A DNA stretch of 64,000 bases, taken from Acidobacteriota bacterium. GTDB taxonomy: Bacteria; Acidobacteriota; Terriglobia; Terriglobales; SCQP01. The notes beneath the pieces are model-generated. The model made no database searches and was not told where the DNA came from. It was given only the letters and a program-made list of their open reading frames with translations. The stretch is from contig DAHVCP010000026.1 of NCBI GenBank assembly GCA_027314025.1, positions 129,237 to 193,236 on the forward strand. The letters are read 5' to 3'. Below, in pieces: positions 5,442 through 20,882 of this stretch. Each line of letters starts with the position of its first letter. Position 1 is the stretch's first letter. The position numbers and the translations under genes were made by a program.

Positions 5442-6218
5442 TCAGCTAGGCGGCGGAGACCCGTCCGGCGCGTACCCCAGTTCGGCTTCCGTATCGGGCG
5501 TGGCATTCGACCACCGCAGCCACAGCCGATGATAGCGTTCGTCGCCGAGCACGGCCTGTAGGCTGCGGGCCGCCAGGCGCCGCAATCGCTGCCGGCCGAG
5601 CGCGGCGGGCTTGGCGGCAAGTCGCGCGGCGATATCAGCGGCGGTATCGTGCCGGCGGGCCATGTAGCGCCCCAGGACCTCCACTCCGGCCAGGACCCGG
5701 GGCTGGGCGCCTGCCTCCGAGGTGAACACTCGGGCATAGCCAGCCTCGGCGCACGCCGCCACGACGCTCCCGTTCCAGCGTCCGGCCGGCATGGAGATCT
5801 CGCTGACCTCCCGTCCGATCCGGTCTTCGATCACTTGCTTGGACCGGCGCAACTCCTCATGCAGCTGTCTGCGGTCGCAGGCGGGCAGAAACACATGCGA
5901 CCAACCATGCGATTGCACCGAGTGCCCGAGGTCGGCGAGTGCCGACAGCTGGCTCCAGCTGAGAAATCCGGCCCGCGCCCCGATCCATGCCGCGGTGATG
6001 AATAACGTGGCCTTGGCGCCGCGGGCTTCCAGCCGGGGCAAAGCGTATTCGAAAATGGAGGCGTCGCCGTCGTCGAATGAGATCGCGGCGTCCGGGGGCA
6101 GGCGCGCGGCGGCCGGCGCCAGCACCTCTAAATGCGCCGCAAACTGTTCCGGCGTGACGGAATACAGGTAGCGCGCGGACTCACTGGGCCGAATCTGATG
6201 ATAGGTGAGGTGGAACAT
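5442..6218 (-). CDS. Polysaccharide deacetylase (NodB / CE4 family)
   Basis: Motifs are ISFDDGDASIFEYALPRLEARGAKATLFI and HGWSH, the NodB-homology metal/catalytic motifs. Confidence 0.75.
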   Translation of the reverse strand: MFHLTYHQIRPSESARYLYSVTPEQFAAHLEVLAPAAARLPPDAAISFDDGDASIFEYALPRLEARGAKATLFITAAWIGARAGFLSWSQLSALADLGHSVQSHGWSHVFLPACDRRQLHEELRRSKQVIEDRIGREVSEISMPAGRWNGSVVAACAEAGYARVFTSEAGAQPRVLAGVEVLGRYMARRHDTAADIAARLAAKPAALGRQRLRRLAARSLQAVLGDERYHRLWLRWSNATPDTEAELGYAPDGSPPPS

Positions 6219-6364
6219 CCGCGGCGGTTTTCCCCATCTCCATCTTGCCGGAAGGAGCGCGCCCGCGCTAGCCGTCCGGGACGGGCGCCGCGTGCGGCAT
6301 GGAATGGGAAGCCGTGAGCGGATGGGGCGTGGTTCGGCCCGTGGCGGCGGGGAGAAATCCGCCT

Positions 6365-8629
6365 TCAGTGGGCGGCCAGAATGCGCTGCGCTTCCGGGCG
6401 TTGGCGGAGCGCTGCGTTCAGCCGCACTGCGGCGGAGAGCGCAACCCGCGCCTCCCGTTTGTGGCCGTCCGCGAACAGCGCCTCGGCTAAATGGAAATGG
6501 AACATCGCGTTTTGGGGTTGCTGCTCGACCGCCGGCCGCAGGAGCGCAATGGCGCTGGCGTTCAGGTGCATTTTGAGATAGACCGTAGCCAGCGTATCGG
6601 CGACCGTGGGCACGTTCGGCAGCGCATGCAGCGCCCGCTGCGCCAGCACCATCGCTTGCGGCAGGTCACGCCCCTGTTTCGCGTAGAGATAGGCAAGATT
6701 ATTGTTCGCCACCCCGGAATCGGGCGCGATGGCCAAGGCGCGCCGGTAGTCGCGTTGCGCCTGAGCCTCGTCGCCGTTCTGCTCGGCAATCATTCCGAGC
6801 ATGGTCCATAGGCCGGCATTGTGGGGATGGCGCCGGAGCGCGGCGGCGTATTCCGCCTCCGCTGCGGACAGCTTGTGGTCTTGGGCGTAGAGGCTGGCGA
6901 GGAGCAGATAGGGCGTCAGGCTCGCGGGAGACAGCCGCACCGCGCGTTGCAGCGTTTGCTCCGCGTCCTCGGTCCGGTGTTGCCGGGCATAGAGGCTGGC
7001 GAGCAGTTCATCGAGCGGCGCGGTTTCCTGCCGGCGGACCTGGCCGCGCACCAGCTGGAGAGCGGCGCCGGGATGGCCCTGGGCAAGCTGCACGTTGGCC
7101 AGCCCAGCCACCGCCGCGGGATCGCCCGGCGCCAGCCGAAGCGCTTGCTGAAACTGCTGCTCGGCGGCCGGATAGTCCCGTCCCCGCAAGTACGCGCCGC
7201 CGAGGCGTAGGTACGGTTGAGGAAGACGGGGAGCCAGTTGCTCCGCCTGACGCCAGTCCTTGGTGGCCGCGAAATTCTGGTGCAACTGGGCTTCCGCGTC
7301 ACCTCGCACCAACCATGTCCCGGCAAATTGCGGCTGCCATGCGCTGGCCTGGGTGGCGTAGTCGAGCGCTTGGTTCGGATGGCCTTGGGCCAGCAGCAGC
7401 CGCGCCAGTGCGGCGGCGGCCAGCGCATCGCGGGGGTGGGCGCGGAGCGATCGCTGATAGGATGCGACGGCCTTCATGGGTTGGTGCAACTGGGTGTAGG
7501 CCTGTCCCAGCAGGTCATCCACCGCGGGGAGACCGGAATTGAGTTGATGCGCGGCGGTTAAGTCTTGCAGCGCCGCTTGGCTCTGGCCCAAAGCCAATTC
7601 GATCCGCGCCCGCAGCAGGCGCACCGCCGCTTGGTGGGGATGTTCTTGCGCCAACGCGTCCGCTAAGCTCCGTGCGCGGGCGGTGCGTCCCTGCGCGAAG
7701 TCAATTTCGATCCGCTGCAGGCGCGCGGGCAGAAAATTCGGCGCCGCATGCGCCAGCGCGGCATCAATCGCTTTGGCCTGCTGAGGATGCCCCTGGCTTT
7801 CCAGGAAGCGGGCCAGGGCAAAGCGCGCCGCTGGGGCGCCATGTTCCAGACGCACCACGGCGCGCAGGGCGGCCTCGGCGCGCCGCGGGTGATGCTGCTC
7901 CGCGTAGAACATGGCCAGCGTGCCGCGGGCTTGGGCGGAGCGGGGATGGGCCTGGACCGCCGCCAGCAGCTCCCGCTCCGCGGCCCCGGGATGGTGCTCG
8001 CTCAGATCCAGTCCGGCGAGCTCCCGCCGCGCCTCCAATGAGCCGGAATTGATGGCGAGCACCTGGTTCCAGGTAGCGCGCGCCCCGGCCGAATCGCCCC
8101 CCGCCAGCTCCACCGCGCCCAGCGCCAATAGTCCCGGCTGGAACCGCGGTTGGCGGGCGACCAACGCCCGCAGCAACTTCCGCGCCTCCGGCGCCTTCCC
8201 TTGCCGCGCCAGCGCCGCGGCAAGCAGGATGGTGGCATTGCCATCGCCGGGGTGCTGGGCCAGCACCGCCTGGGCGTCGGCCTGGGCCTTGGCCGTTTGC
8301 CCCGCGGCCAGTTCGATCCGTCCGGCCGCGAGCCGGGCCGCGGCGTCAGCCGGGCGCAACTGGACCGCCTGGCGATATTCTCTCAGCGCTAAGCCGAACT
8401 GCTCCTCGCGGGCGTAGGCGCGGGCCAGGCGGACGTGCAGCGCCGCGGACTGCGGCGCAATCCGCAGTGCGTTGCGGAGTTCGATGACGGCGGCGGCATA
8501 CCGCCCGCTCCGCATGTCGGCGCGGGCTTGCGCCCGGAAGTGGGCTTCCCGCTGGGCGGGGCTGCTGCATCCGGCAGCGGCGGTGAGGAGAACCGCCGCC
8601 GCGGCGAGAAAAAGGAGATGGCGTTTCAT
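6365..8629 (-). CDS. prsT: PEP-CTERM-system TPR-repeat lipoprotein (PrsT-like)
   Basis: The start was reset to MKRHLLFLAAAAVLLTAAAGCSS (lipobox). The remaining roughly 730 aa are TPR repeats throughout. Its ATG overlaps the exosortase stop (ATGA at 8626-8629). Confidence 0.7.
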   Translation of the reverse strand: MKRHLLFLAAAAVLLTAAAGCSSPAQREAHFRAQARADMRSGRYAAAVIELRNALRIAPQSAALHVRLARAYAREEQFGLALREYRQAVQLRPADAAARLAAGRIELAAGQTAKAQADAQAVLAQHPGDGNATILLAAALARQGKAPEARKLLRALVARQPRFQPGLLALGAVELAGGDSAGARATWNQVLAINSGSLEARRELAGLDLSEHHPGAAERELLAAVQAHPRSAQARGTLAMFYAEQHHPRRAEAALRAVVRLEHGAPAARFALARFLESQGHPQQAKAIDAALAHAAPNFLPARLQRIEIDFAQGRTARARSLADALAQEHPHQAAVRLLRARIELALGQSQAALQDLTAAHQLNSGLPAVDDLLGQAYTQLHQPMKAVASYQRSLRAHPRDALAAAALARLLLAQGHPNQALDYATQASAWQPQFAGTWLVRGDAEAQLHQNFAATKDWRQAEQLAPRLPQPYLRLGGAYLRGRDYPAAEQQFQQALRLAPGDPAAVAGLANVQLAQGHPGAALQLVRGQVRRQETAPLDELLASLYARQHRTEDAEQTLQRAVRLSPASLTPYLLLASLYAQDHKLSAAEAEYAAALRRHPHNAGLWTMLGMIAEQNGDEAQAQRDYRRALAIAPDSGVANNNLAYLYAKQGRDLPQAMVLAQRALHALPNVPTVADTLATVYLKMHLNASAIALLRPAVEQQPQNAMFHFHLAEALFADGHKREARVALSAAVRLNAALRQRPEAQRILAAH

Positions 8630-9576
8630 ACGGGCTCGTGAGGTTCGAGGCGCGCGGCGCCCGGCGGCGGTTCCAGTGTGCGCCGCGATTGTTCTCCGCG
8701 CCGCAGCCAAAGCAAGAGCGGCCACAGCAGAACTAAGGCGATCAGGAAGAAGACAAAGCCGCCCTCCCGGTGCAACCGGCCGTAGAGAAAGCCGCGATTC
8801 ACATGCAAAGCCAGCAGGCAGAGGGTGCAGATGCGGATCGCGTTCTTCACCGCCGAAAAGGGAATCGCGACCAGCACCAGTACGGCGCGGCGCCAAGGCG
8901 AGCGCAAATAGAAATATCCAGCCAACAGGGCGGTGATGGCCAGGGCTTGGCTGGAGCGGATGCTGCTGCATTCCTTGGCGACGTGGATCGTAATGGTGGG
9001 AATAAAGAGGTCAAACCCTTGCCGGAAGACCGGCACGCCCAAGACGCCGAAGAACCAGGCGCACATGTGCGTCGAGCCCGCTTGTAGCCAAAAGATGGAA
9101 CGGTCGAGCAGAAATGGCGGAAACGGGATGATGAGCAGAAGAAACAGCCAGGCAAACAGCCCGGCCTGGAAGACCCGGCGGCCGTATATGGCGCAGACCC
9201 CGGCAAAAAGAAACAGCACCAGGCTGAGGGCGAGCAGGCTCAGGTGATCGGCATACGGCACCCGCCCCGCCCATCCCAGGGCCCAGCCCAGGCTCAGGGC
9301 GCCAACGGCGGCGAAACTCGCCGCCGCCAGCCGGTCGCGGCCAGGGTGCGCGAAGATGGATCGCCGCTCGGTCCACAGCAGGTAAATGGAGACGAACGGA
9401 ATCAGGGGAATGTAGGAACAAAAATCGTTGCCCAGGGCGAAGGCCAGCAGTTCGCGCAGGGGCTGCGCGAATAGGGCCAGCAGCGCCGCGAAATAAATTA
9501 TCAGGGCGCGGCGCCGCCGCGGGTCTGCGGCGGTGCTGGCGCGGGAGGCGGAAGGGGTTTCAGTGGCGGGGTTCAC
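8626..9576 (-). CDS. Exosortase (EpsH/Xrt family transpeptidase); subtype not assigned
   Basis: A polytopic membrane protein with the exosortase active-site region VAKECSSIRS and a downstream NAIRI...LHV. GTG at 9576 was chosen as the start; the ORF-track N-terminus is Arg/Pro-rich junk overlapping the upstream gene. Confidence 0.75.
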   Translation of the reverse strand: MNPATETPSASRASTAADPRRRRALIIYFAALLALFAQPLRELLAFALGNDFCSYIPLIPFVSIYLLWTERRSIFAHPGRDRLAAASFAAVGALSLGWALGWAGRVPYADHLSLLALSLVLFLFAGVCAIYGRRVFQAGLFAWLFLLLIIPFPPFLLDRSIFWLQAGSTHMCAWFFGVLGVPVFRQGFDLFIPTITIHVAKECSSIRSSQALAITALLAGYFYLRSPWRRAVLVLVAIPFSAVKNAIRICTLCLLALHVNRGFLYGRLHREGGFVFFLIALVLLWPLLLWLRRGEQSRRTLEPPPGAARLEPHEPV

Positions 9577-9619
9577 GGCGAGGGGCGGTCTCAATGCTGG
9601 GGCGGTGGTACTCGCGCAG

Positions 9620-10663
9620 CTAGCGCGGAGACGAAGCGCCGGAGCGGGCGTCCACCATCGGGGCGGATGCCAGAGCCGGGGTGGTCGCCATCGGCCGCGC
9701 CGCCAGATAGTCGAGCCAGTTCTGGTACAACCGTACCGCATCCACCGCCCAGTTGCATTCGAGCTGCGCGGCGATGGGGCCGTCCGGGAACTCGGCGAGC
9801 AGCGCGGGATCGGGGCGCGCCAGCGCCTGCCGCTCGAATGCCGCCAAGGACCGCGTGGATTCGGGATCAAAGTAGTTGTGCGGCAGCGACGGGTAGTCCG
9901 GGCGCTCGCCGCGCAGAAAGCGCCGCACGTCGCGCCGGTATTCCTTGAGCAGCGTGGCGGCGTGATATTCCGGATGGCCCTGGAGGTGGACGAACAAACT
10001 GCGGCCGCGCGGCTTGACGAACAGGCCCGTGCCGGCCCCCGGCGCGTGGGTCAGGACGGTGTAGCCATGGAGCGCGAGATCGGCTTGCCGCAGATCATTC
10101 CAGCGCGAGTGGGGAAAGTAGACGGTGGGACGGGCCCCGCGCGTCAGCGGGTGCGTCTGCGCCACCTGCTCGGCAAACACGCCGATGCGCTTCCGGGCCA
10201 GCGGCTGGCGCGGGATCCCGCTTTCCTGCAAGACGGCGGCATGGGCCGCCAGGCAGGACAAAACCGCCGAGTGCGTGTGGCTCTCGGCCCAGCGCAGCAG
10301 CTCCACGAGTTCCGGCCAATACGCCTCGGCCCGCAGATCTGGCTGCAAGGGCTCGGCGCCCGTGATGATCACGCCGTCATAGCTGCGGTTGAGCAGCTCG
10401 GCAAGGCTGAAATACGCGTGGTCCAGCCGGGCTCGCGCCTCCGGCCCGCGCGGCACCGCCGGCAGATAGTGAAACGCCAGCTGCACCGGCCGCTCCCCGG
10501 CCGCCGCCGTGAGCAGTGCGGTGAACTGCTCCTCGGTGTCGGCCAACGCGGCGTCCGGCATGTTATTGACCAGCGCAATGCGGAGGCCGGCGCGGGCCGG
10601 GCCAGTGGCCCGCCCACGCGGGGTGGGGCGCGACGATGGCGGATGCTCAATGGCGACGGGCAT
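9620..10663 (-). CDS. metA: Homoserine O-acyl(succinyl/acetyl)transferase, MetA family
   Basis: Motifs are LRIALVNNMPD, a catalytic-Cys region (SAVLSCLAAHAA) and LQGHPEY. The start was reset to MPVAIEH at 10663. Confidence 0.75.
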   Translation of the reverse strand: MPVAIEHPPSSRPTPRGRATGPARAGLRIALVNNMPDAALADTEEQFTALLTAAAGERPVQLAFHYLPAVPRGPEARARLDHAYFSLAELLNRSYDGVIITGAEPLQPDLRAEAYWPELVELLRWAESHTHSAVLSCLAAHAAVLQESGIPRQPLARKRIGVFAEQVAQTHPLTRGARPTVYFPHSRWNDLRQADLALHGYTVLTHAPGAGTGLFVKPRGRSLFVHLQGHPEYHAATLLKEYRRDVRRFLRGERPDYPSLPHNYFDPESTRSLAAFERQALARPDPALLAEFPDGPIAAQLECNWAVDAVRLYQNWLDYLAARPMATTPALASAPMVDARSGASSPR

Positions 10664-10767
10664 GGCAGACTCGCTGGCCCCCTGCGAGATGGGCGTATGG
10701 GTGGGGTCGTCAGCGCGGATCGGGAGACCCGCCGCATGCCGGGAGACCGGCGCCCGGCCCGCAATCG

Positions 10768-11757
10768 TTAGTAAGCGCCGGAGACGATGTTGTGCAGCGG
10801 AGCGGATTGCAGATAACGCCGGATCTGGGCGGCGGCAAAGCGCATGGCGCGGACCATGAACTCCGGGCTGGATGCGGCGACATGCGGCGTAATCAGCACG
10901 TTCGGCGCCCGCCACAGCGGATGATCCGCGGGAAGCGGTTCCGGATCCGTCACGTCCAGGGCGGCACGGATCCGGCCCTGGCGCAGCTCGGCGACCAGCG
11001 CTTCGGTGTCAACCACGGCGCCGCGTGCGGCGTTCACTAACAGCGCCCCGCTCCGCATCCGGGCCAGCTCCGGCGCGCCAAGTAGGTGTCTGGACTCCGG
11101 GGTGAGGGGCACGGTCAGGATGACCACATCCGCCAGCGGCAGTAATCGGCGCAGCTGCGTGGCGGGCCAAATGCCCGGGCGAGCGCGGCGCGCAACCCTT
11201 AGGATCCGGGTGCGAAATGGCGCCAGGAGGCGCTCAATCTCGGCGCCAATCGCCCCGTATCCCACGATCAGAACGGATTTTCCGCGCAACTCCTCAAGCC
11301 GCACGGGCGGATAGCAGGGCGGTGCGTCGGGAAGTAAAGTCCGAAACCGAGTATCCGATTCTCCCCGGCGTTTCCAGGCGGCGTCCCGCTGGATATCTCC
11401 ATAGAGCGGAAGATATTTCAGCGACGCCAGAATCGCGGTCAAAACCCATTCGGCTGTCGCCACGGTATGAACGCCCCGCGCGTCGCAGACGACAATCCCC
11501 GGGGGAGCCAGCGGCAGCAGCCAGTCCACGCCCGCGAGTACGGATTGAATGACCCGCAGGCCGCGCAGGCGCGGCAGGGTTATTTTGACGTCCTCGGCAT
11601 AGGGCGGGGCAATCCAAAACTCGACGCGGACTGCCGTCTGCGGCGGGCATCGCAGCCGCCGTAGCTGGATGCCTGACGGGAGGGCGCTCAGCAGCGCGGG
11701 CGTGACTGCCGCGGAAACCCCAACCGCGAGTTTGCTGCGCGATGGCACCTTCCCCAA
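10768..11757 (-). CDS. D-isomer-specific 2-hydroxyacid dehydrogenase
   Basis: An NAD-binding motif (VGYGAIGAEI) plus LLVNAARG, DVTDPEP and ITPHVAA signatures. Confidence 0.8.
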   Translation of the reverse strand: MGKVPSRSKLAVGVSAAVTPALLSALPSGIQLRRLRCPPQTAVRVEFWIAPPYAEDVKITLPRLRGLRVIQSVLAGVDWLLPLAPPGIVVCDARGVHTVATAEWVLTAILASLKYLPLYGDIQRDAAWKRRGESDTRFRTLLPDAPPCYPPVRLEELRGKSVLIVGYGAIGAEIERLLAPFRTRILRVARRARPGIWPATQLRRLLPLADVVILTVPLTPESRHLLGAPELARMRSGALLVNAARGAVVDTEALVAELRQGRIRAALDVTDPEPLPADHPLWRAPNVLITPHVAASSPEFMVRAMRFAAAQIRRYLQSAPLHNIVSGAY

Positions 11758-11762
11758 GCCGC

Positions 11763-13280
11763 CTAGCCTGCATGCGCCGCGGAAAGCAGCGCGCGCAGCG
11801 CCTCCTTGCGAATCTTGCCGGTCGGCGTCAACGGCAGGGCTTCGATCTCGATCATCCGCGTGGGCTGCTTGTAGTGGGCCAGGCGCGGCCGTAACCAGGC
11901 GGCGATTTCGGGCAGCGGTAAGGGGCTTTCAACGGGCTGGAGAAAGGCTAGAATTTCTTCCCCCCCCGCCGCGCCCGCCGTGGGTTCGGCCAGAACCGCG
12001 GCGCGCTGAATGGCAGGATGCTGCTCCAGCACGGCCTCAATTTCCGCCGGATAGACATTGAAGCCGAATCGGAGGATCAGTTCCTTGGTTCGGCCCAGCA
12101 AATACAGCAAGCCGTCTTGCCGGCTGCCCAGATCCCCGGTGTGAAACCAGCCGGCTTGGTCCACCACGGCGGCGGTTTCCGCCGGTGAGCGGTAATACCC
12201 CAGCATGAGGTTGGGACCGCGGACCCAGATCTCGCCGGCTTCCCCCTCCGGCAGCGCCCGTCCGGCCGAATCCGTGATCTGGACCTCGACGCCAGGGTAG
12301 GGCCGGCCAACCGAGGTGTCTTGGCGAGGCGTGTCCAGCCGCGTCGCGGAGATGCCCGGTGAGCATTCCGTGATGCCGTAGCCGTTATGGAGCACACGTT
12401 CGAGCAAGGCCTCGGTTTGCCGCTTGGTTTCGATCGGGAGCGGGGCCGAGCAGGAGGACAGCAAGCGCAGCCGCGGCGCTTCCACCCGTTCCAGACCGCG
12501 GTATCGCGCATATTCCACCAGTTGGGCGAACATCGCGGGCGCGCCGATCCAGACCGTAATGGCGCGTTGGCGCAGCCACTCGAGGGTGGTCACTGGCTCC
12601 GTGCGCGGGGGGATGTCCACGCAGGCTCCGGCTGCAAGCCCCGCCAGCAGCACCAGCGACAGACCGCTCGAATGGGTCAGGGGCAGGCCGCCCAGCAGAC
12701 GATCCTCGGATTGAAAGCTCCGGATTTCGGCTGCCGCGCGCGCCGCGAAGATCAATCCGCCGTGCGAGAGCATGACGCCGCGCGGCGTTCCCGTGGTTCC
12801 CGACGTATAGAGGACCGCGCCCACGCGACTGCTGGGGTCCGCGGCCACCGGTTCGGGCGCGGCCGCCGGATCAAGCGGGCTGGCTGCGACCTCGCCCAGG
12901 GTTGCGACCGGATCATAGCGCGCATGGAAATGCTGGGCGTGCATCTCCGCGCGGCGGGAACGGGTGAAGACCATGCGCCGCGGACGGGCGTGCTGGGCGA
13001 CGGCTTCGATTTCCGCCGTGGCCAGCCGGGCGTTGACCAATACCGGCCAGGCGTCGAGCCGCGCGGCGGAGAAGAGCAGGGCCACGTAGGCGCGGCAATT
13101 GTCACTGACCAGCAGCACCCGGTCGCCGGGCCGCACGCCCAACTCCGCCAGCCATGCCGCCGCGGCGTTCACGGCGGCGTGCAACTCGCCGTAACTCCAT
13201 GCGCCGGCCGCGTCCGCTAGGGCGGGGGAGTCCGGGGCCGAATGCACCCAGGGATCAATGAGATCAGAGATGCGGTTCAT
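11763..13280 (-). CDS. Adenylate-forming (AMP-dependent) acyl/aminoacyl ligase
   Basis: Motifs are YTSGTTGTPRGV, GYGITE, HTGDLG and PTGKIRK. Its ATG overlaps the stop of the upstream MetY-like gene (ATGA at 13277-13280). Confidence 0.85.
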   Translation of the reverse strand: MNRISDLIDPWVHSAPDSPALADAAGAWSYGELHAAVNAAAAWLAELGVRPGDRVLLVSDNCRAYVALLFSAARLDAWPVLVNARLATAEIEAVAQHARPRRMVFTRSRRAEMHAQHFHARYDPVATLGEVAASPLDPAAAPEPVAADPSSRVGAVLYTSGTTGTPRGVMLSHGGLIFAARAAAEIRSFQSEDRLLGGLPLTHSSGLSLVLLAGLAAGACVDIPPRTEPVTTLEWLRQRAITVWIGAPAMFAQLVEYARYRGLERVEAPRLRLLSSCSAPLPIETKRQTEALLERVLHNGYGITECSPGISATRLDTPRQDTSVGRPYPGVEVQITDSAGRALPEGEAGEIWVRGPNLMLGYYRSPAETAAVVDQAGWFHTGDLGSRQDGLLYLLGRTKELILRFGFNVYPAEIEAVLEQHPAIQRAAVLAEPTAGAAGGEEILAFLQPVESPLPLPEIAAWLRPRLAHYKQPTRMIEIEALPLTPTGKIRKEALRALLSAAHAG

Positions 13281-14605
13281 GCCGGTGGGTTCGCCGCGGC
13301 GAGGGCCTGCTCCAAGTCCGCCCGGAGATCGTCAATATGCTCGATGCCCACGCTCAAGCGCAGCATCTCCGGCGTGACGCCCGCCTGGGCTTGCTCCGCG
13401 GGGGTCATTTGCCGATGCGTGGTCGAGGCGGGATGGCAGGCCAGCGACTTGGCGTCGCCGAGGTTGACCATTTGCCGGAACAGGCGCAGGGCATTGACGC
13501 ATTTCTTGCCGGTCGCAAAGCCGCCCTTCACGCCGAAGGTCAGCAAGGAGCAGTCGCGGTCGCCAAGGTAGCGCCGCGCCAAGGCGTAGCTTGGGTGTTC
13601 GCGGAACCCCGTGTAGCTGACCCAGGCGACTTGGGGATGGCTCGCCAGGAACTCCGCTACCTGCCGGGCGTTGGCGACATGGCGCTCCATGCGCAGGGCC
13701 AGGGTTTCGATGCCCTGTAGGATCAAGAACGCGTTGAACGGCGCCAGCACCGCGCCGCCGTTGCCCAGGCCGACGGTACGGCAGCGGGCGGCGAAGGCCG
13801 CCTCGCCAAAGTGGTCGGTGTAGACCACGCCGTGATAGGCCGGATCCGGCCGACTGAACTGGGGAAACCGATCCGCGTGCGCCCGCCAGTCAAAGCGCCC
13901 GCCGTCCACGATCAAGCCGCCGAGCGTGGTGCCATGGCCGCAGAGAAACTTGGTTGCCGCATGCAGGACGATATCGGCGCCATGCTCGATCGGCCGCAGC
14001 AAAATGGGCGTGGCCACGGTGTTGTCCACGATCAGCGGTACCCCATGGCGGTGGGCAACCGCGGCCAAGGCGGCAAGATCGGCGACGTTGCCGGCTGGAT
14101 TGCCGACGCTTTCGCAGAACACGGCGCGGGTACGGGCGTCCATCCGCCGCTCGACCTCCGCGGCGGCATCGCTTGCGGCGAAGCGCGCCTCGATGCCCTG
14201 TTGGGAGAAGACGTGCGCGAACAGCGTATAGGTGCGGCCGTAGAGCTGCGGCAAGGAGACGAAGTTGTCTCCCGCCGCGACCAGATTGGCGAGGGCGTAT
14301 TGCACGGCGGTCATGCCTGAGCTGACCGCCACCGCGGCGACGCCGCCCTCGAGCGCCGCGACGCGCTCCTCCAGCACCGCATTCGTGGGATTGCCCAGCC
14401 GGCTGTAGATGTGGCCCTCGACCTCCAGGTTGAACAGTGCGGCCCCGTGCTCGGCGCTGTCAAAGCCGTAGGCGACGGTTTGGTAGATGGGTACGGCGAC
14501 GGCATGGGTCGCCGGATCGCCGCCAAACCCGGCGTGCAGGGCGATGGTCTCGGGGTGGAGCTCGCCTGGTTTCCGCCCGGGCGCGTTGTCAGGATTTAGG
14601 GCCAA
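13277..14605 (-). CDS. metY: PLP-dependent O-acetylhomoserine (thiol)-lyase / gamma-replacement enzyme (MetY / Cys-Met-metabolism family)
   Basis: Motifs are ETIALHAG, AVPIYQTVAYGF, SSGMTA, VDNTVATP and ATKFLCGHG (PLP lysine). The start is uncertain: TTG 14605 was chosen, and GTG 14638 is an alternative. The ORF-track N-terminus overlaps the upstream gene and is junk. Confidence 0.75.
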   Translation of the reverse strand: MALNPDNAPGRKPGELHPETIALHAGFGGDPATHAVAVPIYQTVAYGFDSAEHGAALFNLEVEGHIYSRLGNPTNAVLEERVAALEGGVAAVAVSSGMTAVQYALANLVAAGDNFVSLPQLYGRTYTLFAHVFSQQGIEARFAASDAAAEVERRMDARTRAVFCESVGNPAGNVADLAALAAVAHRHGVPLIVDNTVATPILLRPIEHGADIVLHAATKFLCGHGTTLGGLIVDGGRFDWRAHADRFPQFSRPDPAYHGVVYTDHFGEAAFAARCRTVGLGNGGAVLAPFNAFLILQGIETLALRMERHVANARQVAEFLASHPQVAWVSYTGFREHPSYALARRYLGDRDCSLLTFGVKGGFATGKKCVNALRLFRQMVNLGDAKSLACHPASTTHRQMTPAEQAQAGVTPEMLRLSVGIEHIDDLRADLEQALAAANPPA

Positions 14606-14612
14606 GGGATTG

Positions 14613-15734
14613 TTACCGTGCGGCAATTTGGACGTCACGAGGCCGGATCTGGCGCGCCCGTTCGAGTTCCAGCCGCAGGGCGGCGGCGGTTTCGGCGACG
14701 TACGGCTCCACCAACATCGTGGCGGGATAGAGCGGCAGAATGCAGGATTCGGCGCCACCACCAGCCAACTGCTGCCAATCCGCGGCGGCCTGCCGCAGAC
14801 TGCGGTATTGCCATTTGGGCCGAAATTCGGTGATCCGTCCCGGATAGGGCAGGGCCCGGTACTCGGCGCAGGCGCGGTCGTTGGCTGCCCACACGGCAGG
14901 GAGCGGCGCGCGCGGGGCCTTCGATCCGGGAGCCCGCAGCCGGTCCCGCCACACCGGAACGCGGGCACGAAGGATCTTGACTTTTTCGCGCCACAGACGC
15001 CGCCGGTCCGAGGCATTGAGGCGGGCGAAGGCCTGCGCGTGAAAGCTCAACCGCTCCAGCTGCTTGCGGAGACGGCTCCAGGCCGTCGCTGGCGGGAGCG
15101 CGTTCCAGTTTCTGGTGTCGAGCAATCCGAGGAAAGCCACGGACTCGCCCGCGCGGGCGAGTTGCTGGGCCACTTCGTAGGCGATGGTGCCGCCGCCGCA
15201 GTAGCCAGCCAGATAATACGGCCCTGTGGGCGCGACGGAGCGTATCGCCGGGAGATATGCAGCCGCCATCGCCTCCACGCTTTGAGCCGGCTCGACTTCG
15301 CCGTCGAGGCCCGAGGCGCGGACGCCGTACACCGGCTGGTCGGGGCCCAGTCGCTGCGCGAGATGGCGGTAGCCGAAGACGTCGCCGCTCGCGTCGTGCA
15401 GCAGGAACAGGGGCGGCCAGGCGCCCGCCGCTTGTAGCGGAACGATGCGCGGAGGTAGGGCGGGGGCGCGATCCGCTAGCAGCGCGGCAAGCGAACTGAC
15501 CGTTGGCGCCTCGAACAGAACCACCAAAGGCAGCCTACGCCCGAACTCCCGTTCGATGCGGGAAAACAAGGCCACCGCTAGCGAGGAATCGCCGCCCAGG
15601 TCAAAGTAGTTGTCATCGGGGCCGACGCTGTCCAGGCCCAGCACCTCGCGCCAAATGGCGGCGAGCCGGGTCGCGGCGTCCCCAGGCGCGCCGGTGGGCG
15701 TGGCCGGCGTCGAGCGCTCGAGGTTTGCGGGCAT
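14613..15734 (-). CDS. Carrier protein (PCP/ACP) fused to an alpha/beta-hydrolase thioesterase domain
   Basis: The phosphopantetheine motif is FDLGGDSSLA (Ser50). The TE-type domain has LFLLHDASGD and the nucleophile elbow LAGYCGGG, where Cys179 (TGC at 15198-15200) replaces the usual Ser. Confidence 0.75.
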   Translation of the reverse strand: MPANLERSTPATPTGAPGDAATRLAAIWREVLGLDSVGPDDNYFDLGGDSSLAVALFSRIEREFGRRLPLVVLFEAPTVSSLAALLADRAPALPPRIVPLQAAGAWPPLFLLHDASGDVFGYRHLAQRLGPDQPVYGVRASGLDGEVEPAQSVEAMAAAYLPAIRSVAPTGPYYLAGYCGGGTIAYEVAQQLARAGESVAFLGLLDTRNWNALPPATAWSRLRKQLERLSFHAQAFARLNASDRRRLWREKVKILRARVPVWRDRLRAPGSKAPRAPLPAVWAANDRACAEYRALPYPGRITEFRPKWQYRSLRQAAADWQQLAGGGAESCILPLYPATMLVEPYVAETAAALRLELERARQIRPRDVQIAAR

Positions 15735-15737
15735 ACG

Positions 15738-17225
15738 CTACGAATTTTGTCGGGCCGTTCCCGCCGGCTGGTGCGTGGCGCCCGCGGCGGGAACGACGTA
15801 ACGCAACTGGTCGTCGTGGATCTCCGCGTACGCGATTCGGGCGCGCTCGGCCCCATCGCCCGCGATGCGCCAAGCGGCGCCGTCGTGGTGCAAGGTCATG
15901 GCGCGCCGCTGGCGCCACCAATGGCTGATTTCTCGCGGCAGGGCGAACCAGCGCTCGCCCTGGCGATGTTCCGCAGCCAGCATCTCCCCAAGACGTTGGA
16001 AGATATCCCGCGCCCGTTGCTCGATGATGTAGTCGGGATGGATCGAGAAACACATCACGCCGTGGGCGGCGGCGGTGGCGGCTAGCTGCTGTTCCCAGAT
16101 TTGGGTGGAATAGTCGCCGAGCATGTGGAACAGGATGTAATCCTGCGCCGCCGTCCCCGGGATCTCGACCATGTCGCCCAGGAAGTATGGGCGAACCGCG
16201 CAGCATCCTCCCGCTTGGGGATGAAAATGCGCGCCGTTGGGCAGGGACATGTCGTAATCGAAGCGCAAGGCGCCGAACCAGTCCAAATTCCGGTAGAGCA
16301 CCGCGGAACGAAAGCCCTGGGCCCCCCATTGGCGGCCATAGGCGTTGATGCGCTCGGCGCGGCGCAAAAACTCGTCGCGGCTGCTGAACAGGCGGCCGTC
16401 GTGGTTCAGGTCATGAACATTGATTTCAAAGCCGCGGTCGCGGATGCTCGCCAGCCACACCTCCGGGACGTCATACCGATGCTCGGGAATGATCTGGAAC
16501 GAGGCTTTCATGCCGTAGCGTTCATCCAGATCCATGAGGGTTGGGGTGAAGTCGCGGCCGGCGGCGGTCTCCACGTCGTGGGTCATGGCGACCGCCGAGG
16601 AATGGCCATCGGGCCAAAACCAAATGAACGGAATCCGGTCCACGCCGCGGGCGCGCATGGCCAGCAGCAGCAGCGCTTCGAGCGTATGCTCGACCGTCGC
16701 ATCAATCGGCCAGGCTGGGAAACTCGGCGCCGCATTCCGCTTGCGGCCCACCACAGAGCGCTGCAGATGCTTGCGGATGCCGACGGGCATTAGTGGCCGG
16801 AGGGTGTAGTAGGCCTGGGCCGCGGCCCGCTTCCAGACGGGGCCGGAGCCGGCGGGCTGTCCGGCGCCAGGATAGCGTTCGAAGAGCAGATTGCTGATGG
16901 CCTCGGCGGGATCGAACGGCAGACGGCATTCGCCGTCGCCGATCGCCACTGCTTTAAGCGCGTCCACGCGTGCGTCCTCGGGCCGCGGCGCCGCGCCGCC
17001 CGAAGCCAAGCCACCAAACAAGGTAATGTCCGGCCCGAGCCGGAAAAACCCCGCCTCGCCGGCGTCACCGGCGGGCGGGCGCAGGACGCCCATGTCATCG
17101 GGACATCGGAAGTGTTCTTGCAAAAGCCCCTTCATCGTAAGTGCAGGCCCTTCTTTAGCGGCATTGATCGCCGCCGGCGGTAAGTCCAACTGAAGCGGTG
17201 TTCCGTTGCTGATCGGCTTTGGCAT
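15738..17225 (-). CDS. Large polysaccharide-deacetylase-like (CE4-related) protein with an N-terminal domain of unknown function
   Basis: The central region (AVAMTHDVE...ASFQIIPEH...INVHDLNHDG) resembles the deacetylase fold. The roughly 180-aa N-terminal part was not recognised. Confidence 0.45.
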   Translation of the reverse strand: MPKPISNGTPLQLDLPPAAINAAKEGPALTMKGLLQEHFRCPDDMGVLRPPAGDAGEAGFFRLGPDITLFGGLASGGAAPRPEDARVDALKAVAIGDGECRLPFDPAEAISNLLFERYPGAGQPAGSGPVWKRAAAQAYYTLRPLMPVGIRKHLQRSVVGRKRNAAPSFPAWPIDATVEHTLEALLLLAMRARGVDRIPFIWFWPDGHSSAVAMTHDVETAAGRDFTPTLMDLDERYGMKASFQIIPEHRYDVPEVWLASIRDRGFEINVHDLNHDGRLFSSRDEFLRRAERINAYGRQWGAQGFRSAVLYRNLDWFGALRFDYDMSLPNGAHFHPQAGGCCAVRPYFLGDMVEIPGTAAQDYILFHMLGDYSTQIWEQQLAATAAAHGVMCFSIHPDYIIEQRARDIFQRLGEMLAAEHRQGERWFALPREISHWWRQRRAMTLHHDGAAWRIAGDGAERARIAYAEIHDDQLRYVVPAAGATHQPAGTARQNS

Positions 17226-17243: not shown

Positions 17244-18401
17244 TTAGGCAATATGCCGGTACAATAGTTCGCCGGCGGCAATCAATAACGGCTGCGGCAA
17301 ATAGCTGGCTAACGCCAGTGCCGGTTTCCGCGCCAGCCGGCGCCAACGGGCGCGGTGCGGCGTGGCGAGGCCCGAACTCGGGAAGCGGAAATAGGTCAGC
17401 TGCTGCGGTTGGGCGTTCCAGTGCTGCTTAAACGCCAGCAACCCGGTGTTGTCCGTGGCCGAACGGCCCAGTTCCAGCGTGCGGGCGCCGCGCCGCCGGC
17501 CCTCTTCGATGGCCCGCCACATCAGCAGCGGCATGGCGCCCAGGGCATGCCAGGCCGCATCCGATGCCCCGTACTTGTAGGTCAGGCGCTCGCGGAATTG
17601 CAAGGTCACGATCGCCGCGATGGCCCTTCCCTGCTTGCGCGCGACATATACCGTCAGCGCGTCGCCACACGCCTCCGCCAAGTGGCGAAACCAGGCCCGC
17701 GGCTGGGGTGGCAGTCCGTGCCGCCGGCGGGTGAGCGCGTGGAGAGCAAAAAAGGCATCCAGCAACGCCGGCGACCGGCCCATCTCGACATCCAGCTGTT
17801 CCCGCTCCGCCCGGCGAATGCGGCGCTGCACGCAGTCCTTGTGGAAGCTGCGCAGCAGGGGCTCGCGTGCGCCGGCGATGGGCGCGATGTGCAGCGCATA
17901 CTCCGCCGAAGGGCTCCATTCCCTATCGCCCGCGTCGTCCCCTGGCGCGCGCAAAGGACGAATCTCGATGTAGCCACGCCGGTCGCGGCACGCGGCGGCG
18001 ATGAGCCGCTGCCAGCTGTTGCCTGCGTCGTTCGGGGCGCATGCCAGCAACGGCTGGCAATGGTCGGCGAAGGGAACGGAAACCATCCGCTCCCGCGTAA
18101 GCCAGGTGCGGACGCGGCAGAAGACCAGCCCATCGGACAACGGCTCGCCCGGACTGGCGGAGGTATAGGCGATGGGTTCATATCCATAGCAGGCGCGCAG
18201 CGCGCGCAACCACGCCGTGGTGTGGAAGACGCCGGCGTCGGGATGCCACGCCAGCAGTTGCTCCCAGCGCGGGTCGCTGAGAGGATCGATTTGCCGCGCC
18301 TCCCCGGCCGACGCCGCCCTGGCGACGGCGATGGGCGCCGCGCTGGGGGCTCCGGCGGCGGCGGGATTTCCGCTCAGGCTGGGGGTGGCCATCGCATCCA
18401 T
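17244..18401 (-). CDS. FemAB-like / GNAT-fold aminoacyl- or acyl-transferase (PEP-CTERM-locus type)
   Basis: The start was reset to MDAMATPS at 18401. The size is about 385 aa. The pattern FHTTAWLRAL...VSVPFADHC...YVARKQGRAIAAIVTLQF...YKYGASD...LLMWRAIEEGRRRG...LELGRS resembles the FemAB-related proteins found beside exosortases. The call is by resemblance only. Confidence 0.5.
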   Translation of the reverse strand: MDAMATPSLSGNPAAAGAPSAAPIAVARAASAGEARQIDPLSDPRWEQLLAWHPDAGVFHTTAWLRALRACYGYEPIAYTSASPGEPLSDGLVFCRVRTWLTRERMVSVPFADHCQPLLACAPNDAGNSWQRLIAAACRDRRGYIEIRPLRAPGDDAGDREWSPSAEYALHIAPIAGAREPLLRSFHKDCVQRRIRRAEREQLDVEMGRSPALLDAFFALHALTRRRHGLPPQPRAWFRHLAEACGDALTVYVARKQGRAIAAIVTLQFRERLTYKYGASDAAWHALGAMPLLMWRAIEEGRRRGARTLELGRSATDNTGLLAFKQHWNAQPQQLTYFRFPSSGLATPHRARWRRLARKPALALASYLPQPLLIAAGELLYRHIA

Positions 18402-18432
18402 CGCTGGTGACTGCTTGCAAACGTCCTCGCGC

Positions 18433-19683
18433 TTAAAATCCGCGCTTGGCGAACAGATACGGCAGCAGGAAAATCTCGACCAAGCCCGGCCATGGATCGC
18501 GGCGGGAAAAGACGGCTTCAGTGTTGGCCCGGCGCAGGGAGCGCCAATAGGCGCTCCAGCGCTGCCGGCCGGCCCAGGCATCCAGCAGGCCGACGGGCAG
18601 ATCGGTGGCCAGGCGCACCCAGCGGACGCCGGCGCGAGCGCGGCCCTGGGTGGTGGGCAGGCCGAGTTGATCGGCGAACAGCAGATAGGGAAAGTCCACG
18701 CCCGCCGCCGCTCCAAGGCTGTGATACCCCCACGTGCGGCCGTTCACGTCCAGCAATTTATAGCGGCCATCACGGGGATCCAGCTTGTACTCCATCTCCA
18801 CCAGGCCGTAGTAGCCGATGGCGCGCAGGAACCGCTCGGAGACTTCCTCCAGGTGCGGTGCTTCCACGGTTTCCACATAGGTGCTGGCGCGGCCGAACTC
18901 GGGGGGATGCTGGCGCAGGCGGCAGACGGTCATGCTGCCCAGCGCGCGGCCATCCTTGAACATGGCGCAGTAGGCGAATTGCTGGCGGCCGTCACCGGGA
19001 ATCAATTCCTGAATCATGACCTCTTCGGCGCCGACCTGCGCGGAGGCCCGGCGGAAGGCGTGGCGGAGTTCCTGGCGCGAGTTGGCGCGCCACGCCTTGA
19101 CCCGGGTGGCGTAAAAGAAATGCTCCTTGATGGCGGGCTTGACCACATATGGCGGGTCGGCGGTGACGGCTTCCAGGTCGTCCTCGCTCCGCACCAGCCA
19201 CGTGGCGGGGGCGGCGATATCGAGCTCGCGGGCGCGGGCGTAGGTGTTGCGCTTGTCCCAGATCCATTGGACCGCGTCCCACTCCGGCGTGGCCACCCGA
19301 AACCACGGCGCCAGTTCGGCGCGATGGCGGGACAGCGCCGCCACGGTTTCATCGCGGGTGGGAAACAAGACCCAACCGTCGAGGCCGCGGCGCCGGCCGA
19401 GTTCGAGGAGGCAGGCAATGGTGGCGGCTTCATCGCGCAAATTGGCGACATGGACGGCGCCCGAGGCGTAGCGGGAGTAGCGGGCGACGGAATGCTCATT
19501 GTCGAGGACCAGCACCGGCACGCCCCGGCGACCGAGGCTGCGGACAATGCCCAAACCCTGGTAATCGCCGCCGATCACCACCGCGCCGGTAACGCCCACC
19601 CCACCGGAGTTGGGTGAAGGCGCCGGCGCGGCGGCGGAGGGGCGGACCGGGGGTTCGGACACAGCGATCAGGCGCATTGCCAT
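18433..19683 (-). CDS. ATP-grasp carboxylate-amine ligase
   Basis: Motifs are PYVVKPAI, VMIQELIPG and GLVEMEYKLDPRDGRYKLLDVNGR (ATP-grasp Mg/ATP motifs). The 5' end overlaps the upstream gene by 16 nt. Confidence 0.7.
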   Translation of the reverse strand: MAMRLIAVSEPPVRPSAAAPAPSPNSGGVGVTGAVVIGGDYQGLGIVRSLGRRGVPVLVLDNEHSVARYSRYASGAVHVANLRDEAATIACLLELGRRRGLDGWVLFPTRDETVAALSRHRAELAPWFRVATPEWDAVQWIWDKRNTYARARELDIAAPATWLVRSEDDLEAVTADPPYVVKPAIKEHFFYATRVKAWRANSRQELRHAFRRASAQVGAEEVMIQELIPGDGRQQFAYCAMFKDGRALGSMTVCRLRQHPPEFGRASTYVETVEAPHLEEVSERFLRAIGYYGLVEMEYKLDPRDGRYKLLDVNGRTWGYHSLGAAAGVDFPYLLFADQLGLPTTQGRARAGVRWVRLATDLPVGLLDAWAGRQRWSAYWRSLRRANTEAVFSRRDPWPGLVEIFLLPYLFAKRGF

Positions 19684-20882
19684 TGGGGCGCCAGCCGGGC
19701 GCGGTAGCGAGGCGCGAAATACGCCAACAGCGCCGGTCCGGCGTACCGGGTTCCGGAGACAAACTGCATGATGGGGCCCACCGTGCGCGCGGCGGGGGCG
19801 CCGAGGATGTGCAGACCGGGAACCGAGGTTTCAAAACCCGGACCCAGCACCGGATAGCCCTGGACGCGGCGAATCCGGCTGACGAGCTCCGGGGCAAGAA
19901 ACGCGTAACGGGCGATGTCCACCTGGTAGCCGGTGCCGAGCAGCAGGTGATCCACCTGGCGATCGGTTCCGTCGCTGAGCCGCAGGGCGACGCGGCCGCC
20001 TTTCTCAGCGACCGAGGTTACCTCGTAGCCCAAGCGCAGGGGAACCTCGCGCAGGCGGTCCACCAGCCAGCGGGCGCCGGCGGGACGCACGGCGCGGCGC
20101 CAAAGGCGGTCGCGCAGGCCGCGCGGCAGGGTATTGAACAGGGCGGGGCGGGCCAGCAGTTGGCTGAGGCCGGCGGGGCCGACATCGGTGGGGGCATAGA
20201 GCAGCTTCGGCACCAGGGATCCCATTTGGTGATGAAACAGCTTGGAGGCGCGGCCTTGCAACCAGTGGATGACGCGGTCGCGGGCAATGACCTCGACTTG
20301 GGCGCCGGATTCATGCAGCAGCGCGGCCGATTCCAGCGCACTCTGGCCGCCGCCGACGATCAGCACGCTGCGGCCGGCGAAACGGCCCAAATCGGGATGC
20401 TCGGCGGTGTGCGAAACCAAATCGGGAGGGAGTTGGGTAAACCGCTCCGGGCGGCGCTCGAAGCCGCGAATGCCGGCGGCGACGATGACGCGCTCGGCTT
20501 CCGCCACTTCGCCGTCGGCGAGGCGGAGGCGGAAACCTTTCGGCGCGGCCTCGACGCTGGCAACCTGGCGCCGGTCCACGCTGGGTACGGCGCGGCGCTG
20601 GAACCACTCGCCATAGGCGATGAAGCGATCGAGCGGAACGGGAGAGGGCACCGCGCCCTCATCGGCGGCGAAAGCGTCTAGGCCCAAGCGCGCGGCTTGC
20701 GCGGCCGGCGCGGCGATATGCGTCGCGGGCCAATTGGAGCGCAGGAGCATGCCGCGCGGCATGCTGCGCCAAAACGACATGGGCTCGCCAAAAATGCGAA
20801 CCTGCAACCCGGGAATAGCGGCCAAATGGGCCGCCGTGGACAGGCCGTAAGGGCCAGCGCCAACAATGGCAATTTCGCTCAT
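19668..20882 (-). CDS. FAD/NAD(P)-binding oxidoreductase, class-B flavoprotein-monooxygenase-like
   Basis: There are two dinucleotide-binding motifs: IVGAGPYG at the N-terminus and LIVGGGQSA at mid-protein. Confidence 0.6.
   Translation of the reverse strand: MSEIAIVGAGPYGLSTAAHLAAIPGLQVRIFGEPMSFWRSMPRGMLLRSNWPATHIAAPAAQAARLGLDAFAADEGAVPSPVPLDRFIAYGEWFQRRAVPSVDRRQVASVEAAPKGFRLRLADGEVAEAERVIVAAGIRGFERRPERFTQLPPDLVSHTAEHPDLGRFAGRSVLIVGGGQSALESAALLHESGAQVEVIARDRVIHWLQGRASKLFHHQMGSLVPKLLYAPTDVGPAGLSQLLARPALFNTLPRGLRDRLWRRAVRPAGARWLVDRLREVPLRLGYEVTSVAEKGGRVALRLSDGTDRQVDHLLLGTGYQVDIARYAFLAPELVSRIRRVQGYPVLGPGFETSVPGLHILGAPAARTVGPIMQFVSGTRYAGPALLAYFAPRYRARLAPQWQCA

Follow-up and report, generated by a model that had tools for sequence, protein, structure and literature searches.

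Thioesterase (TE) domains decide how carrier-bound products leave assembly lines. The 64,000-nucleotide stretch analysed here (the window; contig DAHVCP010000026.1 of an Acidobacteriota bacterium) encodes on its minus strand, at 14613..15734, a free-standing didomain protein of 373 amino acids made of a peptidyl carrier protein (PCP) domain and a TE domain, which raises the question of how this protein, called PCP-TE below, discharges its cargo. Its nucleophile elbow reads G-Y-C-G-G, and the initial annotation took the Cys in this motif as a hint of release through a thioester enzyme intermediate, correlating it with the strained-ring chemistry of the ObiF and SulM TE domains. We found that this Cys does occupy the nucleophile elbow, and that the absence of the canonical catalytic His is a more unusual feature of the protein than the Cys itself. 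Taking our observations together, we see an even chance that a thioester acyl-enzyme is resolved by a nucleophile other than water, that is by acyl transfer, which would make PCP-TE a carrier-dependent acyltransferase, neither a plain hydrolase nor a beta-lactone or beta-lactam cyclase. The suggestion of a thioester intermediate with non-hydrolytic resolution was thus retained as the most economical reading.

The two domains were delimited by translating the open reading frame (ORF) and matching it to the Pfam PP-binding and Thioesterase families. The carrier domain covers residues 23-86 (15477..15668, on the minus strand like all residues and operon genes located below; PF00550, 67.9 bits with a cut-off of 20.8) and includes Ser50 (15585..15587) in F-D-L-G-G-D-S-S, which we take to be the phosphopantetheine attachment site from the standard GGxS carrier motif. 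Both Asp49 and Ser50 are invariant among 121 homologues. The adjoining alpha/beta-hydrolase TE domain spans about residues 95-365 (14640..15452), as judged from PF00975 and from the secondary structure of an AlphaFold2 model, in which a three-helix lid is formed by residues 218-237, 241-265 and 277-291. The match to the Thioesterase family PF00975 (residues 107-263, 92.4 bits) is well above the cut-off of 26.4, so that the protein combines an above-threshold TE with an adjacent carrier, and covers only positions 1-157 of the 226 in the profile, the C-terminal half being too divergent. No dedicated family model for PCP-TE was found in NCBIfam, which gave sub-threshold matches to nonribosomal peptide synthetase (NRPS) and polyketide synthase (PKS) models, or in Pfam, where PF00975 is the TE model. 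By Foldseek, the best folds for the whole protein are AB3403 (4ZXH) and the EntF PCP-TE (3TEJ).

First, we asked whether Cys179 is where the nucleophile should be. The plus strand at 15192-15206 reads gccgccgcagtagcc, the reverse complement of which, GGC TAC TGC GGC GGC, encodes G-Y-C-G-G, and the minus-strand translation of 14613-15734 includes YYLAGYCGGGTIAYEVA; Cys179 is encoded by TGC at 15198..15200, and the coordinates and translation given in the initial annotation are therefore correct. The motif had been aligned by eye only, and each of the methods we used bore that alignment out. With phmmer against PDB chains, G-P-Y-Y-L-A-G-Y-C-G-G-G pairs with G-P-Y-Y-L-L-G-Y-S-L-G-G of EntF and with G-P-Y-F-L-G-G-W-C-F-G-G of AB3403, and an hmmsearch of the family profile against PDB chains repeats the same pairing. 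A profile-profile comparison by hhalign, between 61 homologues and 14 Ser-type paralogous PCP-TE proteins, places Cys179 opposite the Ser of the paralogues with a probability of 100%. In the AlphaFold2 model (mean predicted local distance difference test (pLDDT) 87.6, predicted template modelling score 0.78), the nucleophile elbow is formed where strand 173-178 passes into helix 180-194, and Cys179 is the residue between them. Together, sequence, profile-profile and fold comparisons agree that Cys179 occupies the nucleophile elbow.

Close homologues do not alternate freely between Ser and Cys at this position. Cys is found in all 121 homologues (45-93% identity) retrieved by a search of 5.8 billion proteins, within a family motif Y-C-[GML] that reads Y-C-G here, and in 179/179 members of a wider clade, defined here by its Cys179/His232/Pro337 pattern and without a published family. 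Also, the codon is TGC both in the window gene and in its 93%-identical orthologue (locus L008), and comparison of the two genes gives a ratio of nonsynonymous to synonymous substitution rates (dN/dS) of 0.29, indicating purifying selection on PCP-TE. Since Cys179 is invariant throughout and the gene is under purifying selection, this residue is not there by chance. A Cys alone is nevertheless unremarkable, being a known minority state among thioesterases and the norm in this family.

Second, we located the partners that a Cys nucleophile would be expected to have, and here the acid was found and the His was not. Asp206 (GAC, 15117..15119) in L-L-D-T is paired with the Asp in the LLDT motif of both EntF and AB3403 and comes right after strand 199-205 of the model; this residue is Asp or Glu in all 179 clade members. 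An acid placed after beta6 has been termed "position I" (PMC11298585, PMC11536411). There is no acid at position II of the window protein, where the loop after strand 301-306 reads R-P-K-W-Q-Y. Where the catalytic His would follow beta8, the protein has Pro337 (CCC, 14724..14726): the loop after the last strand (328-333), L-P-L-Y-P-A-T-M-L-V-E-P, lies opposite L-P-G-D-H-S-S-I-M of AB3403 in the hmmsearch alignment and, independently, opposite V-P-G-D-H-L-G-I-L of the Ser-type paralogues in the hhalign alignment. Position 337 is Pro in 179/179 clade members. Moreover, residues 233-373 of PCP-TE contain no His at all, the only three in the protein being His113, which belongs to a general H-x-x-x-G motif, His124 and His232. 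We also considered His348 as a displaced catalytic His and rejected it, since this position is Glu in the window protein, His in 106/179 clade members and E, Q, D, Y or V in the others. PCP-TE therefore lacks the catalytic His in the loop after beta8 that characterizes type I TEs, and it shares with AB3403 and BulbE the Cys and the acid after beta6 only. By score it is a PF00975 member, but one without the His of the classical triad. To our knowledge, all Cys thioesterases characterised so far (ObiF, SulM, BulbE and the AB3403 structure) retain an Asp-His pair.

Third, we examined how widely this arrangement is shared. The query was scored against 1.84 billion representatives, 79 genome loci were fetched and 272 full-length TE domains were aligned to the family hidden Markov model. 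The states at positions 179, 232 and 337 are Cys/His/Pro in 179 of these domains, Ser/other/His in 52, Ser/His/His in 15 and Cys/Trp/His in 8, with other patterns in the remaining 18. Among the 181 sequences having Pro337, all but two (179/181) have His232 as well. In a FastTree phylogeny of 177 non-redundant domains, 85/85 Cys/His/Pro sequences fall into a single clade of 88 tips, the remaining three of which are derived variants. Within the phylum, a match at E<=1e-60 was found in at least 4 of 400 other sampled genomes, a lower bound with four candidates scored per genome. We found no description of a histidine-less Cys thioesterase in the full-text literature, the coverage of which was incomplete, so that the clade can be called undescribed only tentatively.

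The same TE type also ends larger proteins. It is terminal in arrangements with condensation (C), adenylation (A), ketosynthase (KS), acyltransferase (AT) and acyl carrier protein (ACP) domains, namely C-C-PCP-TE (L019), C-PCP-TE (L026), A-PCP-TE (L035) and KS-AT-ACP-TE (L031 and L069), in metagenome-assembled genomes (MAGs) of Acidobacteriota, Nitrospirae, Planctomycetota, Chloroflexota, Ignavibacteria, Verrucomicrobia and Bacteroidota. Because it is terminal in NRPS and PKS end modules, we regard it as a working off-loading domain. This bears on the view that the TE-like domain of PCP-TE is catalytically inert and only offers the carrier a scaffold or docking surface, with Cys179 having a structural or redox role. 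Such a view would accommodate both the missing canonical His and a Pfam match restricted to the N-terminal two-thirds of the TE model. We consider it very unlikely, given that this TE type is the sole off-loader of end modules that would otherwise be dead ends, that the 121 homologues show no variation at the elbow, in the H-x-x-x-G motif, at the acid in position 206 or at about 25 more TE positions, and that the gene is under the purifying selection described above. As a separate observation, the proteins of L019 (7055-11068) and L026 (8453-11056) combine condensation domain(s), a carrier and a histidine-less Cys TE with no adenylation domain.

With the canonical His gone, the question becomes whether another residue has taken over its role. 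His232 (CAC, 15039..15041), in the first lid helix, is His in 179/179 clade members and variable or Trp in TEs that retain the canonical His, which makes it a candidate substitute base or acceptor-binding residue. Other lid residues are likewise specific to the clade. Lys251 (AAA, 14982..14984) is Lys in 178/179 clade members compared to about 20% of Ser/His TEs, and Asp286 (GAC, 14877..14879), in the third lid helix, is Asp in 171/179 clade members and hydrophobic or variable in canonical-His TEs; an Asp or Glu at 303, within strand beta7, replaces the Leu of other TEs. In total, Phe231, His232, Lys251, Asp286, Asp/Glu303, Pro306, Gln309, Tyr310 and Pro337 are near-invariant in the clade and variable or hydrophobic elsewhere, and the window protein has all five of Cys179, His232, Pro337, Lys251 and Asp286. 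The lid residues are modelled with a pLDDT of about 93-97. When a profile of residues 161-373 was compared with PDB sequences, significant alignment was obtained up to about residue 208 and around the beta8 loop only, and the lid of PCP-TE gave no alignment to solved structures by sequence. His232, together with Asp286 or Asp303, may thus act on an acceptor or rebuild a triad.

The second of these two options leads to a hydrolytic or editing TE, in which the lid His232, perhaps held by Asp286 or Asp303, activates water in order to free the acid or to clean mis-loaded carriers. TE domains are mostly hydrolases or cyclases, and the clade-wide invariance of His232, its association with Pro337, the confidently modelled lid and the acid kept at 206 would all suit a relocated His. 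Still, we hold hydrolysis to be unlikely. Loading a carrier at the expense of ATP and then hydrolysing the product would seem purposeless in a two-protein system without an elongation module, and His232 is a putative substitute for the lost His. In addition, characterised Cys TEs give non-hydrolytic outcomes, and Ser mutants hydrolyse better, the Cys-to-Ser mutants of BulbE, ObiF and SulM all shifting to hydrolysis (PMC11536411, PMC6668435).

A further state of the beta8 loop was observed in five loci (L028, L030, L032, L033 and L034), where it reads N-P-H-A-M-L, with a His at 338 after the invariant Pro and with His232 kept. This subgroup may represent an intermediate or alternative state of a displaced histidine.

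What, then, would be transferred if PCP-TE is an acyltransferase? The probable loader of the carrier is a stand-alone acyl-AMP ligase encoded in the same operon (11763..13280; Pfam AMP-binding, 268 bits). Since the carrier of PCP-TE is the sole PP-binding domain in the window, as found by a genome-wide PF00550 scan, it is the only local partner for this ligase. The ligase reads P-L-T-H-S-S-G-L-S where amino-acid adenylation domains have F-D-x-S, so that in an alignment to LgrA a Ser/Gly comes opposite the alpha-amino-binding Asp, and its best NCBIfam matches are acyl-CoA and malonyl-CoA ligases. From these motifs and matches, its substrate is probably an acid that carries no alpha-amino group. 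An "aminoacyl" loading of the carrier was rejected, as the ligase lacks the adenylation-domain Asp, and a beta-hydroxy or beta-amino alpha-amino acid is for the same reason unlikely as a substrate.

Based on these features, the acyl-transfer reading can be laid out as follows. A phosphopantetheinyl transferase would prime Ser50, and the adjoining ligase would load a non-alpha-amino carboxylic acid onto the carrier arm. From synteny, this acid would probably be a 2-hydroxy or 2-oxo acid of the aspartate/homoserine branch, served by MetA, MetY and a 2-hydroxyacid dehydrogenase. The acyl group would then move to Cys179 by thiol-thioester exchange, a step that should require little catalytic help. 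As no His is placed to activate water in this mechanism, the thioester would survive and persist until a good nucleophile attacks, the likeliest acceptor being an amine. Acyl-thioesters are far more activated for aminolysis than oxoesters (PMC11536411, PMC6668435). The acceptor may be a sugar of the exosortase-linked polysaccharide that has lost its N-acetyl group, or else an amino acid or an intermediate supplied by the operon's FemAB-like and ATP-grasp enzymes, and His232 and Asp286 may position or deprotonate whichever acceptor is used. As for the priming enzyme, the sole 4'-phosphopantetheinyl-transferase match of the genome (ACPS family) is at 6028-6345 of another contig (C75), adjoining an NRPS-like ORF; several relatives, unlike the window genome, have an Sfp-type gene right beside PCP-TE.

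Several points weigh against acyl transfer. His232 might restore an ordinary triad, and hydrolysis would then be possible. The covariation of His232 with the loss of the beta8 His is effectively one evolutionary event, and as such weak evidence, and His232 is already present in 15/67 Ser/His TEs. Both the acyl substrate and the acceptor are only candidates that we infer, and MetA and MetY may be housekeeping methionine genes instead of acyl suppliers. Finally, a second, Ser/His PCP-TE adjoins the Cys one in most relatives but is absent here.

Concerning the methionine genes, MetA (homoserine O-succinyltransferase, HTS) and MetY of the operon are the sole such copies in this 97%-complete genome, in which MetX was not found. 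In five other genomes, the HTS of the cluster is the sole copy in 5/5, and its MetY the sole above-cut-off copy in 4/5. These may be housekeeping methionine genes that sit within the cassette; alternatively, the cassette itself may be linked to methionine/homocysteine metabolism. A sulfur relay from Cys179 to MetY, suggested by the single copies of MetA and MetY, was also considered and dropped, since in L057, L070, L073 and L077 the set of flavin monooxygenase (FMO), MetY, MetA and ligase is accompanied by a PCP-TE of the Ser type only. The same FMO-MetY-MetA-ligase set adjoins the Cys PCP-TE in about 20 related loci and is syntenic in Acidobacteriota, in a Verrucomicrobiia MAG and in Rhizomicrobium MAGs.

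In most of the related loci, the Cys PCP-TE is followed by a class IV aminotransferase and then by another PCP-TE, which has Ser and the canonical P-G-D-H. Close to these are a thiamine pyrophosphate (TPP) enzyme, polysaccharide genes and an Sfp-type transferase. Such pairs around the aminotransferase are found, for instance, at 10001-13184 of L003, 10001-13117 of L087, 10001-13059 of L088 and 10001-13214 of L089. No Ser-type PCP-TE was found in the genome of the window. The D-2-hydroxyacid dehydrogenase is present in the window, where it holds the place of the class IV aminotransferase, and otherwise in the 93%-identical relative only; other relatives have the aminotransferase and the TPP enzyme.

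This gene neighbourhood could also be read as that of an iterative, EntF-like oligomerising TE, in which Cys179 keeps one hydroxy-acid unit until the carrier has been loaded anew and units are joined to dimers or oligo-esters, in relatives with the help of the Ser/His PCP-TE. The EntF PCP-TE is among the best fold and sequence matches of the window protein, a 2-hydroxyacid dehydrogenase adjoins the ligase, and two PCP-TE proteins flank the aminotransferase in most relatives. We nonetheless find this distinctly unlikely: there is no evidence for an oligo-ester product, the genome has one PCP-TE of such kind, and the similarity to EntF does not extend beyond the core fold into the lid.

As to its setting, the gene lies in an acidobacterial polysaccharide locus of the exosortase type, which makes up the window. 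On the minus strand, the gene order is flavin monooxygenase, ATP-grasp, FemAB/GNAT-like, deacetylase-like, PCP-TE, MetY, ligase, 2-hydroxyacid dehydrogenase, MetA, exosortase and PrsT. The first operon gene (19668..20882) encodes a flavin-dependent monooxygenase or pyridine-nucleotide oxidoreductase (Pfam Pyr_redox_3, Pyr_redox_2 and Lys_Orn_oxgnase). It is followed by an ATP-grasp ligase homologue (18433..19683; ATPgrasp_Ter, 30.2 bits), with orthologues of 55-60% identity in related loci, and by a FemAB/GNAT-like acyl- or aminoacyl-transferase (maximal ORF 17244..18716; Acetyltransf_6, 76 bits; TIGR03019 pepcterm_femAB, 104.8 bits, below cut-off). Directly upstream of PCP-TE, a 495-amino-acid protein with a weak, below-cut-off match to polysaccharide deacetylases (15738..17225; Polysacc_deac_1, E=3e-4) has orthologues at 41-47% identity in related loci, and the ATG of PCP-TE comes 3 nucleotides past the stop of this upstream gene.

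Downstream of PCP-TE, the MetY homologue (O-acetylhomoserine sulfhydrylase, 13277..14638; TIGR01326, 606 bits with a cut-off of 495) has an uncertain start, for which GTG 14638, TTG 14626 and TTG 14605 are candidates, and it either overlaps the stop of PCP-TE or lies directly against it. All three candidates are at most 25 nucleotides from the PCP-TE stop codon (14613-14615), and the listed MetY ORF of 579 amino acids (reaching 15016) is an over-extension. This closeness of start and stop suggests translational coupling. After the ligase come the D-2-hydroxyacid dehydrogenase homologue (10768..11757; Pfam 2-Hacid_dh_C, 154 bits) and the MetA/HTS homologue (maximal ORF 9620..10915, the true start probably lying downstream; NF003776, 365 bits with a cut-off of 358).

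Downstream of this cassette, the exosortase (maximal ORF 8626..9870) scores 109.4 bits with TIGR02602 (cut-off 105.55) and the PrsT tetratricopeptide repeat protein that follows it (6365-8971) scores 325.3 bits with TIGR02917 (cut-off 312.2). Exosortase and PrsT, both above their cut-offs and in one gene string, mark an exosortase/PEP-CTERM locus, and no specific exosortase subtype model reached its cut-off. Further upstream of the operon are genes for an aspartate kinase, a sugar-nucleotide dehydrogenase and glycosyltransferases, and elsewhere in the window are Wzx, Wzy, an Asn-synthase-like gene (37823-39694) and an Acyl_transf_3 gene. The latter, at 39709-40830, encodes a membrane acyltransferase of a family that adjoins PCP-TE genes in L001 and L003, and its product is a candidate partner for acyl movement across the membrane. 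In L008, a gene for a 616-amino-acid asparagine-synthase-like protein (glutamine amidotransferase) lies between PCP-TE and MetY (11271-13121). The polysaccharide context recurs among relatives. Genes of the glycosyltransferase, sugar-nucleotide or FemAB-like kind are present in all six Pfam-annotated homologue loci and an exosortase gene in three of the six, and an exosortase homologue was found by tblastn in L008 and L012 as well. A link between exosortase, thioesterase and homoserine was looked for in the full-text literature, of incomplete coverage, and nothing relevant was found.

Two features of this system are thus worthy of attention, namely the loss of the His across a widespread clade and its setting in a polysaccharide-modifying, carrier-dependent cassette. 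A widespread Cys clade with Pro in place of His cannot use the textbook triad, so that a different release chemistry is expected, most plausibly transfer to amines. As a search pattern, the signature G-Y-C-x-G-G, together with F-H in the lid and Y-P-A-G-M-L following beta8, could pick out, among the PKS and NRPS end modules of uncultured phyla, those with non-hydrolytic release. For the window itself, acyl transfer would suggest that an exopolysaccharide of this acidobacterium is decorated with acyl groups by an ATP-driven, carrier-dependent route, with a logic comparable to that of teichoic acid D-alanylation. We can sketch a more complete scenario, which as a whole we regard as doubtful. In it, the clade would have rebuilt its catalytic centre by gaining the Cys and losing the beta8 His, with a new His232-Asp286 (or Asp303) pair from the lid and beta7 serving the acceptor instead of water. 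The resulting aminolytic acyltransferase would N-acylate the exosortase-dependent polysaccharide of acidobacteria with a homoserine- or methionine-derived hydroxy acid, and would release PKS/NRPS amides in other phyla.

How does PCP-TE compare with known systems? The EntF PCP-TE of the enterobactin synthetase (3TEJ/2ROQ) shares the didomain fold, with a template modelling score of 0.55-0.69, and has a nearly identical elbow context (G-P-Y-Y-L-x-G-Y-x-x-G-G) and acid motif (F-L-G-L-L-D-T). In contrast to PCP-TE, it has Ser and the canonical His, ends a full NRPS module and cyclo-trimerises dihydroxybenzoyl-Ser. The TE of mycobacterial Pks13 is another significant sequence and fold match to the window protein. 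It is an acyltransferase onto trehalose and not a hydrolase, which makes it a functional analogue, but it has a Ser/Asp/His triad and belongs to a large PKS acting on mycolic-acid-sized substrates.

The TE domains of ObiF (beta-lactone, 6N8E) and SulM (monobactam, 8W2D) share with PCP-TE the Cys in a G-x-C-x-G elbow, and form a thioester acyl-enzyme such as is proposed for PCP-TE, and both ObiF1 and SulM are among its distant sequence and fold matches. On these grounds, PCP-TE could turn a carrier-bound amino acid into a strained beta-lactone or beta-lactam ring. However, in ObiF and SulM the Asp of the triad follows beta7 ("position II") and a His is kept after beta8 (PMC6668435, PMC11298585), and SulM has in addition a Q-C-N motif and an Arg-rich pocket. 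The window protein has neither of the latter, carries its acid at position I where those enzymes have Gly or another non-acid, and lacks the beta8 His; its ligase lacks the alpha-amino-binding Asp, and the operon has no condensation domain or aryl-acid partner. AB3403 and EntF are also far closer than ObiF (phmmer E 7.5e-31 vs 8.4e-11). We consequently rejected the link to strained-ring products on triad layout and ligase type, and deem such a cyclase highly improbable.

The best match overall is the termination-module TE of AB3403 (ABBFA_003403 of Acinetobacter baumannii, 4ZXH/4ZXI), with an E value of 7.5e-31 by phmmer and of 1.7e-21 by Foldseek. The likeness extends to the Cys elbow (GWCFGG), the Asp after beta6 at position I and the PCP-TE arrangement, in a protein that is itself functionally uncharacterised (PMC11298585). 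AB3403 differs in that it retains the His after beta8 (L-P-G-D-H) opposite Pro337, that its PCP-TE is part of a C-A-PCP-TE protein instead of being free-standing and that the two lids do not align. Likewise, BulbE, the indolylamide macrocyclase of bulbiferamide, has a Cys nucleophile and an Asp after beta6, and its Cys is needed for an aminolysis-type release, the Ser mutant being hydrolytic (PMC11536411). BulbE differs from PCP-TE by its His after beta8 (Cys961/Asp988/His1097), by being a terminal NRPS domain and by acting intramolecularly. Despite these differences, it provides a mechanistic precedent for the acyl transfer proposed here, in which a Cys thioester is resolved by a nitrogen nucleophile.

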